A stretch of DNA of 64,000 nucleotides from Shigella phage ESh28, in the sequence record ON528738; one strand, written 5' to 3'. Of this stretch, positions 60,156 through 62,086 are shown one piece after another. The stretch's first letter is position 1; every line of letters starts with the position of its first letter. The notes beneath the pieces are model-generated. The model was not told where the DNA came from, searched no databases, and saw only the letters and a list, made by a program, of their open reading frames with translations. Both the position numbers and the translations under genes were made by a program.

Positions 60156-60224
60156 TAACTCATATCGCACTGATTAATACCCTCTATCATCAAGGGTTCT
60201 TGCTTAAGAGCCTTTGTTAATAAT

Positions 60225-60297
60225 TGGGAATTAGCCAAGTTGGTAAGGCATAGCACTTTGACTGCTAGATGCAAAGGTTCGAGTCCTTTATTCCCAG
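60225..60297 (+). tRNA. tRNA-Gln (anticodon UUG)
   Basis: cloverleaf folded by eye: acceptor TGGGAAT/ATTCCCA, anticodon loop CTTTGAC, T-arm GGTTCGAGTCC. Confidence 0.85.
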
Positions 60298-60298
60298 C

Positions 60299-60385
60299 GC
60301 GAGAATGGTCAAATTGGTAAAGGCACAGCACTTAAAATGCTGCGGAATGATTTCCTTGTGGGTTCGAGTCCCACTTCTCGCACCA
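60299..60385 (+). tRNA. tRNA-Leu (anticodon UAA), type II with long variable arm
   Basis: acceptor GCGAGAA/TTCTCGC, anticodon loop CTTAAAA, T-arm GGTTCGAGTCC, CCA encoded. Confidence 0.85.
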
Positions 60386-60390
60386 AATTT

Positions 60391-60464
<74 letters not shown>

Positions 60465-60474
60465 ATTTAATTTA

Positions 60475-60548
60475 CTCCGTGTAGCTCAGTTTGGTAGAGC
60501 GTCTGCTTTGGGAGCAGAATGTCGCAGGTTCAAATCCTGCCGTGGAGA
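60475..60548 (+). tRNA. tRNA-Pro (anticodon UGG)
   Basis: D-arm GCTCAGTTTGGTAGAGC, anticodon stem-loop TCTGC-TTTGGGA-GCAGA, T-arm GCAGGTTCAAATCCTGC. Confidence 0.8.
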
Positions 60549-60550
60549 CT

Positions 60551-60640
60551 GGAGGCGTGGCAGAGTGGTTTAATGCACCGGTCTTGAAAACCGGCAGTCG
60601 CTCCGGCGACTCATAGGTTCAAATCCTATCGCCTCCGCCA
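60551..60640 (+). tRNA. tRNA-Ser (anticodon UGA), type II
   Basis: acceptor GGAGGCG/CGCCTCC, anticodon loop CTTGAAA, long variable arm, T-arm GGTTCAAATCC, CCA encoded. Confidence 0.85.
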
Positions 60641-60645
60641 GTTTT

Positions 60646-60721
60646 GCTGATTTAGCTCAGTAGGTAGAGCAACTCACTTGTAATGAGAAGGTCGGCGGTT
60701 CGATTCCGTCAATCAGCACCA
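60646..60721 (+). tRNA. tRNA-Thr (anticodon UGU)
   Basis: acceptor GCTGATT/AATCAGC, anticodon loop CTTGTAA, T-arm GGTTCGATTCC, CCA encoded. Confidence 0.85.
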
Positions 60722-60722
60722 A

Positions 60723-60797
60723 GGCCCTGTAGCTGGAAGGTTCAAGCAAGCGACTCATAATCGCCAGATGGTGGTTCAATTCCACCCAGGGCCACCA
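60723..60797 (+). tRNA. tRNA with CAU anticodon (Ile2-type by analogy with T4 tRNA-Ile, or Met)
   Basis: acceptor GGCCCTG/CAGGGCC, anticodon loop CTCATAA, T-arm GGTGGTTCAATTCCACC, CCA encoded. Confidence 0.75.
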
Positions 60798-60809
60798 AAT
60801 TATGAATTA

Positions 60810-60896
60810 GGGGAGTTATCCCGTAGAGGTAGCGGTGTGGACTGTAAATCCATTGTCATTGCGACTCGGGTGGTTCGACTCCATCACTCCCCACCA
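60810..60896 (+). tRNA. tRNA-Tyr (anticodon GUA), type II
   Basis: acceptor GGGGAGT/ACTCCCC, anticodon stem-loop TGGA-CTGTAAA-TCCA, long variable arm, T-arm GGTGGTTCGACTCCATC, CCA encoded. Confidence 0.7.
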
Positions 60897-60900
60897 ATTT

Positions 60901-60975
60901 GGATGTGTAGCTCAATGGCAGAGCGATCGCCTGTTAAGCGATTGGTTATAGGTTCGAATCCTATCACGTCCGCCA
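60901..60975 (+). tRNA. tRNA-Asn (anticodon GUU)
   Basis: acceptor GGATGTG/CACGTCC, D-arm GCTCAATGGCAGAGC, anticodon loop CTGTTAA, T-arm ATAGGTTCGAATCCTAT, CCA encoded. Confidence 0.8.
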
Positions 60976-60979
60976 AATC

Positions 60980-61055
60980 CGAGGCATAGCTCAGAAGGAA
61001 GAGCAAGGACCTTCTAAGTCCTAGGTCGTAGGTTCGATCCCTACTGCCTCGACCA
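60980..61055 (+). tRNA. tRNA-Arg (anticodon UCU)
   Basis: acceptor CGAGGCA/TGCCTCG, D-arm GCTCAGAAGGAAGAGC, anticodon loop CTTCTAA, T-arm GTAGGTTCGATCCCTAC, CCA encoded. Confidence 0.85.
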
Positions 61056-61371
61056 GACAAGAAGCCGGGTCGCTACCGGCAAGTCGTCGGACTGATGTTC
61101 CCTGGGTAAGGACTGGCATTAACAAATCTTTACGATCGGTTAATGCCCCCTTACATCACAGCAGAAACGGCGCACCGAATTATCGATTCGAGGAAATATC
61201 TTTGCCGTAAGCCGAGTAGCGTTTTTGACGGAACGTTCGGATATGGTCGAGATATGGCCTTTTAAAAATATTGAGTAGCGTCAACTACTTAATAACCGGG
61301 TTCGAATCCCGGCGTTTCGTACAAACACTTGCCTTAGCAGGTGGAACCCCGACAAGGTTGCCGCAAGGCTT
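61056..61371 (+). ncRNA. putative stable small RNA(s) downstream of tRNA-Arg (T4 species 1/2 RNA-like), with tRNA-like T-arm
   Basis: about 320 nt without convincing ORF; hairpins GCCGG...CCGGC (61063-61080), GGCATTAAC...GTTAATGCC (61115-61147), T-arm-like CCGGG-TTCGAAT-CCCGG (61296-61312); ends at the strong terminator. Confidence 0.35.
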
Positions 61372-61400
61372 AGCCCCGACCGAAAGGTTGGGGCTTTTTA
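61372..61400 (+). terminator. rho-independent terminator (AGCCCCGACC-GAAA-GGTTGGGGCT + TTTTT)
   Basis: 10-bp stem, GAAA loop, T5 tail. Confidence 0.8.
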
Positions 61401-61489
61401 GTTTGAATCGCATAGAGAATGCTGTTACGGATAATAACAAAGTAATAAATAATTAATAACCAACCGATAAATTATTTCAAGGATTTTAA

Positions 61490-62053
61490 ATGAAAACCTA
61501 TGCCGAATTTTTAACCGAAGCAGCAAAATTACCATCTGAAGCAGATCTTACTAAAGTATTCTTCCAATTGGACCCAAAAGACCGTGGCGATTTTCTTAAG
61601 TGGAAAGCTAAAGCTATTGAAATGTATAACATCGATAATAGTTCTTTTACGATGAGTCAAGAAAATAAATTCAATAAAGCATTTTTCAAAATTTCTAAGA
61701 AACTGGCATCAGGCGCTCAGGTTCCTAAATCTGCCTTAGCTACTCCTGAACGCGCACCCGTCAAAATTTCTAAGAATATGTTTGACACTAAAAAATATGT
61801 TAATGCTTTGAATAAAGCTCTTGATGCATTGGATGATGCAAAGAAGGCAGCCCGCGATCTTCAAGACGTGTACACCGATTTTGATCGTAAAACTAAAGGT
61901 TCTATTTCAAATAGTGAACGCAATAGTGTAAGTGTTTATTCAGATAGCCTTGATGTTCTTGGCGATGCGTATACTGAAATTAAAAATCGTATTAACACTG
62001 CATCTAAGCTAAAAGCTGCTGCCGAAGCTATAATAACTAAACTGGGTAAATAA
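61490..62053 (+). CDS. internal-protein-like (IPIII-type) capsid-injected protein with capsid-targeting sequence
   Basis: 187 aa starting MKTYAEFLTE-AAK, a near-consensus T4 IP targeting/cleavage signal; Lys/Ala-rich; SD AAGGA. Confidence 0.55.
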   Translation: MKTYAEFLTEAAKLPSEADLTKVFFQLDPKDRGDFLKWKAKAIEMYNIDNSSFTMSQENKFNKAFFKISKKLASGAQVPKSALATPERAPVKISKNMFDTKKYVNALNKALDALDDAKKAARDLQDVYTDFDRKTKGSISNSERNSVSVYSDSLDVLGDAYTEIKNRINTASKLKAAAEAIITKLGK

Positions 62054-62057
62054 TTTT

Positions 62058-62086
62058 AAATCCCTATCTAAATGATAGGGATTTTT
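62058..62086 (+). terminator. terminator hairpin AAATCCCTATC-TAAAT-GATAGGGATTT + TT
   Basis: 11-bp stem directly after IPIII-like stop. Confidence 0.55.

Follow-up and report, generated by a model that had tools for sequence, protein, structure and literature searches.

Orthologs of the T4 species 1 and 2 RNAs at the distal end of the tRNA operon of Shigella phage ESh28: covariation models of a putative tRNA-shaped RNA and of a rod with a hypervariable tip

Two RNAs of the bacteriophage T4 tRNA cluster that are not tRNAs, rnaC (species 1) and rnaD (species 2), were sequenced in the 1970s. Both are annotated in the T4 reference genome (NC_000866), where, read along the transcribed strand, tRNA-Arg (71247-71173) is followed by rnaD (71171-71053) and then by rnaC (71046-70908). 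The T4 tRNA operon gives one primary transcript of ~1.75 kb, mainly from a middle promoter just upstream of the cluster, and eight tRNAs and both the species I and the species II RNA derive from this transcript, which terminates past the species I gene (PMC2330249). In T2L, RB1 and RB3, segB is absent and tRNA-Asn is present (PMC2330249). RNAC of T4 has been seen on a Northern blot in a 2022 omics paper (PMC9697503), and a 2010 review, the same omics paper and a 2025 evolution paper all describe the function of RNAC and RNAD as unknown. Our literature search on both RNAs, aimed at experimental evidence of function and at secondary structures already in print, found only statements of unknown function.

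The window analyzed here is a stretch of 64,000 nucleotides from Shigella phage ESh28 (ON528738), in which ARAGORN and Rfam place ten tRNAs on the + strand at 60225-61055 (Gln, Leu, Gly, Pro, Ser, Thr, Met/Ile(CAU), Tyr, Asn, and Arg), the 3' end of tRNA-Arg(UCU) being at 61055. This gene order agrees with the arrangement reported for T2L, RB1 and RB3 (PMC2330249). The following stretch, 61056-61400, can be matched to T4 base by base through rnaD, rnaC, the trailer, and the terminator (Table 1). rnaC carries a single substitution relative to T4 rnaC (99.3% identity over 143 nt); it has the same neighbors, rnaD upstream and trailer plus terminator downstream, lies on the same strand as the tRNAs, and shows no structural difference. 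As in T4, rnaD starts 1 nt after tRNA-Arg and is located between that gene and rnaC, and its 5' and 3' cores are identical to those of T4; its overall identity to T4 is only 86-87% because its central hairpin belongs to another variant. The two phages also differ in that T4 rnaD ends in CACCA and the rnaD of the window in CACCG, and in that the upstream tRNA-Arg of T4 is markedly different in sequence. Each RNA is present in one copy in the window, where we looked for second copies and found none, and rnaC is the final gene of the operon, with the operon terminator next. This terminator has 10 bp, of which 7 are G-C pairs, a GAAA loop and a following TTTTT; it forms part of a trailer fold of -36.5 kcal/mol, and its position agrees with the terminator annotated in GenBank records.

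A blastn comparison with 50,697 phage records returned 799 that match the stretch, nearly all of them from Tequatrovirus. rnaC was found in 750 records and is at least 99% identical in 419; rnaD was found in 734, with identities ranging from 73 to 100%, and the copy in the window is 100% identical to that of Shigella phage ESh31 and other Tequatrovirus records. The records of the Tequatrovirus phages Aplg8 and GiZh label the same stretch as rnaC, rnaD, and terminator. Alignment and gene order together show 61056-61400 to be the distal end of a T4-type tRNA operon, made up of ten tRNAs, rnaD, a 6-nt spacer, rnaC, a 50-nt trailer and the terminator. Judged by sequence, the element is already known: it consists of orthologs of T4 RNAs C and D and is not a new kind of element.

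Table 1. Positions of the RNA features in the distal part of the tRNA operon (window numbering)
Feature	Position	Strand	Basis or remark
rnaD, T4 species 2 RNA ortholog, 120 nt	61057..61176	+	aligns to NC_000866 71053-71171; predicted 5' hairpin and long irregular rod
rnaD hairpin H1, GCCGG-GUCGCUA-CCGGC	61064..61080	+	two compensatory pairs
rnaD rod	61083..61175	+	P2, P3, P3b, P4; covariation
rnaD P2, 7-bp stem to the 3' end	61083-61089 with 61168-61175	+	covariation model
rnaD P3	61096-61099 with 61160-61163	+	covariation model
rnaD P3b	61103-61105 with 61156-61158	+	covariation model
rnaD P4, hypervariable terminal hairpin	61106-61154	+	alignment of variants
Spacer GAAUUA between rnaD and rnaC, 6 nt	61177..61182	+	T4 annotation
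rnaC, T4 species 1 RNA ortholog, 139 nt	61183..61321	+	99.3% to NC_000866 70908-71046; predicted tRNA-like four-way junction
rnaC acceptor 5' strand CGAUUCG, pairs with CGUUUCG at 61313-61319	61184..61190	+	covariation; two U.U mismatches
rnaC long arm, 69 nt, where a D arm would be: three stems above an AGG/CCU base, then an apical 6-bp stem	61191..61259	+	covariation
rnaC apical loop UUGACG of the long arm	61225-61230	+	predicted kissing partner of CGUCAA
rnaC 10-bp hairpin, in the place of an anticodon arm	61269..61294	+	7 of 10 pairs compensatory
rnaC 6-nt hairpin loop CGUCAA	61279-61284	+	predicted kissing partner of UUGACG
rnaC T arm CCGGG-UUCGAAU-CCCGG	61296..61312	+	stem paired in 100% of cells, 2 compensatory pairs
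rnaC acceptor 3' strand CGUUUCG and tail U-A-C-A-A	61313..61324	+	tail conserved; T4 annotation stops the RNA at 61321
Trailer hairpin CACUUGC-CUUA-GCAGGUG	61326..61343	+	folding; kept in loci without rnaC
Intrinsic terminator of the tRNA operon, AGCCCCGACC-GAAA-GGUUGGGGCU then UUUUU	61372..61400	+	stem 61372-61395

A preliminary description of the window had called this stretch non-coding and structured, and both halves of that statement hold, as the frames of the small ORFs are not kept (see below) and the minimum free energy of the stretch lies far below that of dinucleotide shuffles (z = -6.0, with none of 100 shuffles folding as well). The separate parts also fold more stably than their shuffles, with z values of -3.1 for 61057-61177, -4.9 for 61183-61324, and -4.3 for 61322-61400. 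The length is 345 nt and not the "about 320" that had been given. We found the CCGGG-TTCGAAT-CCCGG hairpin at 61296-61312 and, as described, a strong terminator 60 nt past this T arm, formed by the 10-bp stem at 61372-61395 and TTTTT. The positional match to the species 1 and 2 RNAs of T4 had been noted as well; the suggested alignment to T4 rnaC and rnaD now extends it to the sequences themselves. An accompanying hedge, that the stretch might hold a distinct tRNA-derived RNA, can be dropped because the T-arm motif belongs to rnaC itself.

Two small ORFs, of 40 aa (61143-61265) and 61 aa (61271-61456), overlap the stretch and could be taken to encode small proteins. In PHROG, they match two families whose function is unknown, phrog_24262 (E = 6e-33) and phrog_28391 (E = 2e-32), and "hypothetical protein" is annotated over the stretch in many GenBank records. 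Because of these PHROG matches, we judged the conservation of both frames over 28 distinct homologs. In T4 itself, an in-frame TGA interrupts the 40-aa frame, which also meets stop codons in the lineages of Gelderlandvirus and Marfavirus; its start codon falls within the hypervariable rnaD hairpin, a segment that other variants replace. The 61-aa ORF does exist and does cross the terminator, as the preliminary description had it; 1-nt indels in L030 and L052, and lineage-specific indels in other sequences, throw its frame out of register. A conserved coding frame, which by that description would count against its own reading, was not found, as the frames are broken in T4 and in other lineages, and the substitutions within the ORF stretch fall as compensatory pairs in stems. 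That these ORFs encode proteins is extremely improbable, and the two PHROG families are most simply seen as collections of automatic ORF calls on the RNA genes of near-identical genomes.

For the structure of rnaC, we collected homologs from phage records and from pattern scans of IMG/VR and metagenome contigs, giving an alignment (A3) of 28 distinct sequences from eight lineages: Tequatro-, Kanagawa-, Kagamiyama-, Winkler-, Teguna-, Gelderland-, and Marfavirus and one further group. RNAalifold and manual reading both yield a four-way junction. Under the full model, 91.9% of cells are paired, compared with 38-47% when the pairing partners are slid, and 27 of its 53 pairs show compensatory changes; none of 500 shuffles attains the observed values. 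A 7-bp acceptor stem (columns 2-8 with 134-140) adjoins a 5-bp T stem (columns 117-133), with compensatory changes. The third pair of the acceptor is A-U in 13 and G-C in 15 of the 28 sequences, and its two central U.U mismatches, present in 26 of 28, are replaced by U-A and C-G in the Tegunavirus copies. In the long arm, 15 of the 22 pairs above the AGG/CCU base are compensatory, including five of the six pairs of the apical stem; the lineages of Gelderlandvirus and Marfavirus keep the apical stem-loop, with most of the arm otherwise replaced in sequence. A conserved A-rich linker joins this arm to the 10-bp hairpin. The AGG/CCU base and a GAGGA junction are invariant and the tail reads U-(A/U/C)-C-A-A in all 28 homologs (UACAA in the window, UCCAA in the Marfavirus lineage), an invariance that is at some positions partly by construction because the homolog search patterns fixed those positions.

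The apical loop of the long arm and the loop of the 10-bp hairpin are complementary over 6 bp (UUGACG/CGUCAA), and this helix is paired in 100% of cells of A3. It reads UUGAUG/CAUCAA in Tegunavirus (two sequences) and UUGGCG/CGCCAA in the Marfavirus lineage (five sequences), which amounts to two independent compensatory events, from only two lineages; the search pattern behind the Marfavirus variants left both loops unconstrained. Loop-loop kissing complexes are known from HIV TAR-TAR* and ColE1 RNA I/II. The predicted contact in rnaC resembles these in that two hairpin loops would form six consecutive Watson-Crick pairs, but unlike them it would be intramolecular, joining two arms of one four-way junction, and it is supported by covariation. 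Such a kissing helix would lock the body of rnaC into a compact fold. Together, the covariation data show rnaC to have the predicted architecture of a tRNA-shaped four-way junction, its body putatively held by an intramolecular loop-loop contact.

The resemblance to a canonical tRNA (RF00005) extends to the 7-bp acceptor continuous with a 5-bp T stem, the 7-nt UUCGAAU loop, the four-way junction, the U-N-C-A-A tail, and the place and spacing within a tRNA array. In contrast to a tRNA, rnaC has neither D arm (the 69-nt arm stands in its place) nor variable loop nor encoded CCA, and instead of a 7-nt anticodon loop on a 5-bp stem its third arm is a 10-bp stem capped by a 6-nt loop. rnaC would have no anticodon because this third-arm loop is engaged in the kissing contact. 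In the window, CCA is encoded at neither 3' end, where CCG follows rnaD and UACAA follows rnaC. The T loop UUCGAAU is UGCAUGC or UGCAUUC in Kanagawavirus and Winklervirus, so recognition of this loop cannot be essential.

rnaC could still be, or contain, an unusual true tRNA, either a 94-nt tRNA-Lys(UUU), as ARAGORN calls it (ttt) on the rnaC copy of phage G4507, or a class II/Sec-like molecule built on an internal acceptor ACGGAACG/CGUUUCGU and a CUUUUAA loop. This loop is identical to the anticodon loop of E. coli tRNA-Lys; another record annotates "tRNA-OTHER" over rnaC, and an Rfam tRNA-Sec alignment spans 61228-61320. ARAGORN, however, makes no such call in the window, and the tRNA-Sec match (RF01852) reaches 17 bits where the threshold is 47 (E = 1.4). 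The internal acceptor shows zero compensatory changes, and in 14 of 28 sequences one of its pairs is broken. Nor can it coexist with the kissing helix or with the apical stem, five of whose six pairs are compensatory. The UUUU is also not conserved, being CUCUU, CUUAC, CUUCU, or CUUUG in other genera. We consider a true tRNA highly improbable. Because its T loop is replaced in two genera, it has no anticodon-type loop and, in the window, no encoded CCA, and the internal tRNA fold is without covariation, rnaC is best regarded as a putative tRNA-shaped RNA but not a tRNA.

The tRNA-Lys annotation of rnaC in G4507 is contradicted by this comparison. We also rejected the idea of a PrrC decoy acting through the tRNA-Lys anticodon loop CUUUUAA, as the motif is not conserved outside Tequatrovirus.

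The tRNA-like domain of tmRNA offers a second comparison, since it shares with rnaC an end-closed acceptor beside a T arm and a large non-tRNA insertion. Unlike tmRNA, rnaC lacks both a tag frame and a P2 helix that leads to pseudoknots. A possible tag frame before the T arm, GCG UCA ACU NNN NNN UAA, was rejected, as its bases form the 10-bp hairpin with seven compensatory pairs. No tmRNA is called by ARAGORN in 61056-61400, and the Rfam tmRNA and tmRNA_permuted models reach 7.4 and 10.1 bits there, against 47. The same stretch likewise holds no tRNA (RF00005) at the gathering score of at least 29 bits, and neither ARAGORN nor Rfam at gathering thresholds makes a call of any kind in it; at E<=10, Rfam returns only sub-threshold matches, among them tRNA-Sec, tmRNA_permuted and terminator-like sRNA tails. 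Rfam has no family for rnaC or for rnaD. Annotation pipelines mis-call the stretch, as hypothetical proteins that now make up two PHROG families and as a 94-nt tRNA-Lys.

rnaD was modeled on a separate alignment (A4) of 28 distinct sequences, in which 97.1% of cells are paired, compared with 34-51% when the partners are slid, and eight pairs are compensatory. The 7-nt loop of hairpin H1, GUCGCUA, is invariant in 28 of 28 homologs, here too partly by construction wherever a search pattern fixed a position; compensatory pairs in its stem are A-U/G-C at the base and a change from C-G to A-U in the copy from Vequintavirinae. Within the rod, a purine-rich internal loop is invariant and the pair 61096-61163 is U-A in 17, A-U in seven, and G-C in one of the sequences. 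The flanking cores are 95% identical, whereas the terminal hairpin is 60% identical on average with a minimum of 24%, and it occurs in at least four unrelated sequence types. These features show rnaD to be, as predicted from covariation, a 5' hairpin with an invariant loop followed by a rod with a conserved base and a hypervariable tip. The register of the middle helix favored by the single-sequence minimum free energy fold (C36-G108 etc.) has no covariation and breaks in 8-11 sequences, and we prefer the U40-A107 register. A reading of rnaD as a tRNA-like minihelix, a 5-bp hairpin on a 7-bp stem, was rejected: the helix lengths fit, but the strand connectivity is reversed, and in place of the 3' CCA of T4 other copies have CCG, CAG, CCT, or TCC. 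A convergent adaptive SNP arose in rnaD, on ECOR34.

Outside Tequatrovirus, rnaC keeps company with tRNA genes. In six of the seven other lineages, it stands directly after or between tRNAs at tRNA-like spacing, the usual order being CCA, 5-6 A/U-rich nt, rnaC, 3-8 nt, and the next tRNA; the A/U-rich spacer between the upstream CCA and rnaC was seen in five of these lineages. In Tegunavirus, we found no tRNA upstream of rnaC, which is preceded by an annotated CDS. Dhakavirus-like loci lack rnaC cleanly, the 3' end of rnaD being joined straight to the trailer, and in the Vequintavirinae phage A5-4 (rV5-like), an rnaD homolog directly follows tRNA-Tyr. Among 5,426 E. coli genomes, blastn gave no match to either RNA, and the rnaC pattern, in a scan of 185,579 genomes of bacteria and archaea, turned up a single chance match, from a Bacillus, without a profile match. 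We rejected a host origin of rnaC and rnaD on this showing, given no E. coli match and the single chance pattern match in Bacillus. By their distribution, rnaC and rnaD are separate modules, restricted to phages, that travel alongside tRNA genes.

The literature on T4 and the anatomy of the locus suggest that both RNAs would be transcribed within the long tRNA precursor and freed by the tRNA-processing machinery. A stacked acceptor and T arm is the minimal substrate of RNase P, as known from RNase P model substrates. rnaC has a U or A at -1, and with its 7-bp acceptor and 5-bp T arm it would have the form of such a substrate; on that ground, we infer that its ends are generated as tRNA ends are. 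The 5' end of rnaD, 1 nt past the CCA of tRNA-Arg, probably results from the cut that frees the tRNA-Arg 3' end.

Regarding function, recent papers describe the RNAs as "small regulatory RNAs" or as "thought to play regulatory roles" (PMC9697503, PMC12685909), by which rnaC, rnaD, or both would be trans-acting base-pairing sRNAs that control phage or host mRNAs. The invariant 7-nt rnaD loop GUCGCUA and the conserved A-rich linker of rnaC could serve as seeds. The best-conserved loops of rnaC, however, pair with each other, both RNAs are almost fully structured, and neither has a known target as a base-pairing sRNA. Moreover, both RNAs in their mature form lack a 3'-terminal terminator hairpin and U tail, as the hairpin lies in the trailer that is removed according to the T4 annotation. 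A terminator hairpin followed by a U tail is the usual handle for Hfq. We regard base-pairing regulation as unlikely.

Alternatively, the RNAs could have no trans function at all and be cis structural modules, or stable by-products, that aid the processing, stability, or termination of the operon transcript. They lie at the 3' end of the operon just ahead of the terminator, and rnaC can be cleanly lost while rnaD, trailer, and terminator remain. Deletions of the whole tRNA region of T4 are viable on laboratory hosts, where the region is dispensable. Against this stand the near-identity of rnaC (at least 99% in the 419 records) and the retention of its fold over eight lineages with many compensatory changes, its position in the middle of tRNA arrays and not beside the terminator in other genera, the independent movement of rnaD into another phage subfamily, and the convergent adaptive SNP in rnaD. 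A purely cis role seems to us unlikely.

Our own best guess, which is a tentative one drawn from fold and gene position, is that rnaC may be a stable mimic of tRNA, one that ties up or diverts a protein recognizing tRNAs, and that the tip of rnaD is a candidate host-specific contact. We prefer a mimic over an antisense RNA because the conserved loops of rnaC pair internally, its ends are tRNA-like, and its place is in tRNA arrays. Candidate targets would be a host nuclease or defense factor, or an enzyme of tRNA maturation. For rnaD, a host-specific contact is suggested because its core is conserved, its tip is hypervariable, and the convergent SNP appeared on ECOR34. Considered as a whole, our reading of the locus is one in which we have high confidence, although its part on function, taken by itself, is in our view less likely than not.

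The function of rnaC and rnaD is a 50-year-old question, and their independent movement among the tRNA arrays of different phage groups provides a handle on it. The comparison contributes covariation-based folds for both RNAs, a kissing loop in rnaC that can be tested, and a map of invariant and hypervariable parts; together with the annotation errors, the folds and the kissing loop are useful by-products of rediscovering known RNAs. More speculatively, and with the odds in our view well against it, rnaC as a decoy for tRNA-processing or tRNA-targeting proteins and rnaD as a mobile module that diversifies its tip could both be RNA counter-defense genes housed in tRNA arrays. If so, an inert rnaC locked by its kissing loops would shield phage translation from a tRNA-directed host defense or toxin, and an rnaD tip under host-driven diversification would set the efficiency of the phage on particular hosts, as the ECOR34 SNP hints.

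The tRNA array of the window comprises ten tRNA genes, among them tRNA-Tyr and tRNA-Asn, which are missing from T4, and the segB homing-endonuclease gene is absent from it. This is the T2L/RB1/RB3-type arrangement, in which the preferred SegB cleavage site lies inside the tRNA-Asn gene (PMC2330249). The tRNA-Arg(UCU) of the window is markedly unlike T4 tRNA-Arg in our alignment of the window with T4 (A1). ARAGORN called one gene of the array tRNA-Met(CAT), whereas T4 has an annotated tRNA-Ile at the matching relative position, immediately 3' of tRNA-Thr, and the counterpart in the annotated Tequatrovirus record GiZh is named tRNA-Ile with a CAU anticodon. Given these labels, the gene is probably a lysidine-dependent tRNA-Ile. 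Directly before the array we spotted, by eye only, a MotA-box-like TTGCTTA followed ~11 nt on by TAATAAT. The two motifs could form the middle promoter, which published work puts immediately 5' of the cluster, but the distance from them to the 5' end of the tRNA seems insufficient.

Features of the window discussed here
Feature	Position	Annotation	Context
TTGCTTA/TAATAAT	60200-60224	MotA-box-like	Abuts tRNA-Gln start
tRNA array	60225-61055
tRNA	60723-60797	tRNA-Met(CAT), ARAGORN
tRNA-Arg(UCU)	60980-61055
Two small ORFs	61143-61265; 61271-61456	phrog_24262 and phrog_28391, unknown function	Overlap rnaD and rnaC
rnaC acceptor 3' strand and tail	61313-61324
Decayed terminator copy in trailer	61346-61360
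Terminator	61373-61394
187-aa ORF region	61490-62084	phrog_2280, unknown function	3' of terminator
Hairpin, 11 bp	62058-62084

Beyond the array, rnaC, the ortholog of T4 species 1 RNA, carries a U-(A/U/C)-C-A-A tail 3' of its acceptor stem in all 28 distinct homologs, and the annotated rnaC end in T4 falls two bases before that of this tail. In the Marfavirus lineage the tail reads UCCAA, that is, a discriminator and CCA are encoded. Part of rnaC has entered public records as a tRNA, labeled "tRNA-OTHER" in MK373779 and a 94-nt tRNA-Lys(ttt) in phage G4507 (L052 566-659). ARAGORN reproduced the tRNA-Lys(ttt) call on the G4507 copy and made none on the window; the fold itself is contradicted by covariation. 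Across homologs, the two small ORFs showed no frame conservation, with an in-frame stop in T4, and their PHROG protein families appear to have been built out of spurious ORF calls overlapping the two RNAs.

In the Dhakavirus-like loci (L043, L045-L050) rnaC is exactly missing, leaving a clean gap of ~145 nt across which the rnaD 3' end (...GCGCACCGAA) is fused to the retained trailer (CACTTGCCTA...). In the window, the trailer contains a decayed copy of the terminator 5' half (ACCCCGAC-AAGGUUG versus GCCCCGACCGAAAGGUUGGGGC), and its CCCCGAC, lying upstream, could in principle form an alternative structure by pairing with GUUGGGG on the terminator 3' side. The 187-aa ORF that follows the terminator differs from the corresponding neighbor in T4, e.8. 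The 11-bp hairpin at 62058-62084 looks like a minus-strand terminator.

A homolog of rnaD, the ortholog of T4 species 2 RNA, is present outside the T4-like family, in the rV5-like Escherichia phage A5-4 (Vequintavirinae; L051 399-519), where it lies 2 nt 3' of a tRNA-Tyr and shows compensatory changes in the 5' hairpin H1 and the middle helix. Phages A7_1 and W70, whose genomes (137-145 kb) are similar in size to that of A5-4, also match rnaD in its 5' part. Taken together, these matches imply that the rnaD module has moved by horizontal transfer.
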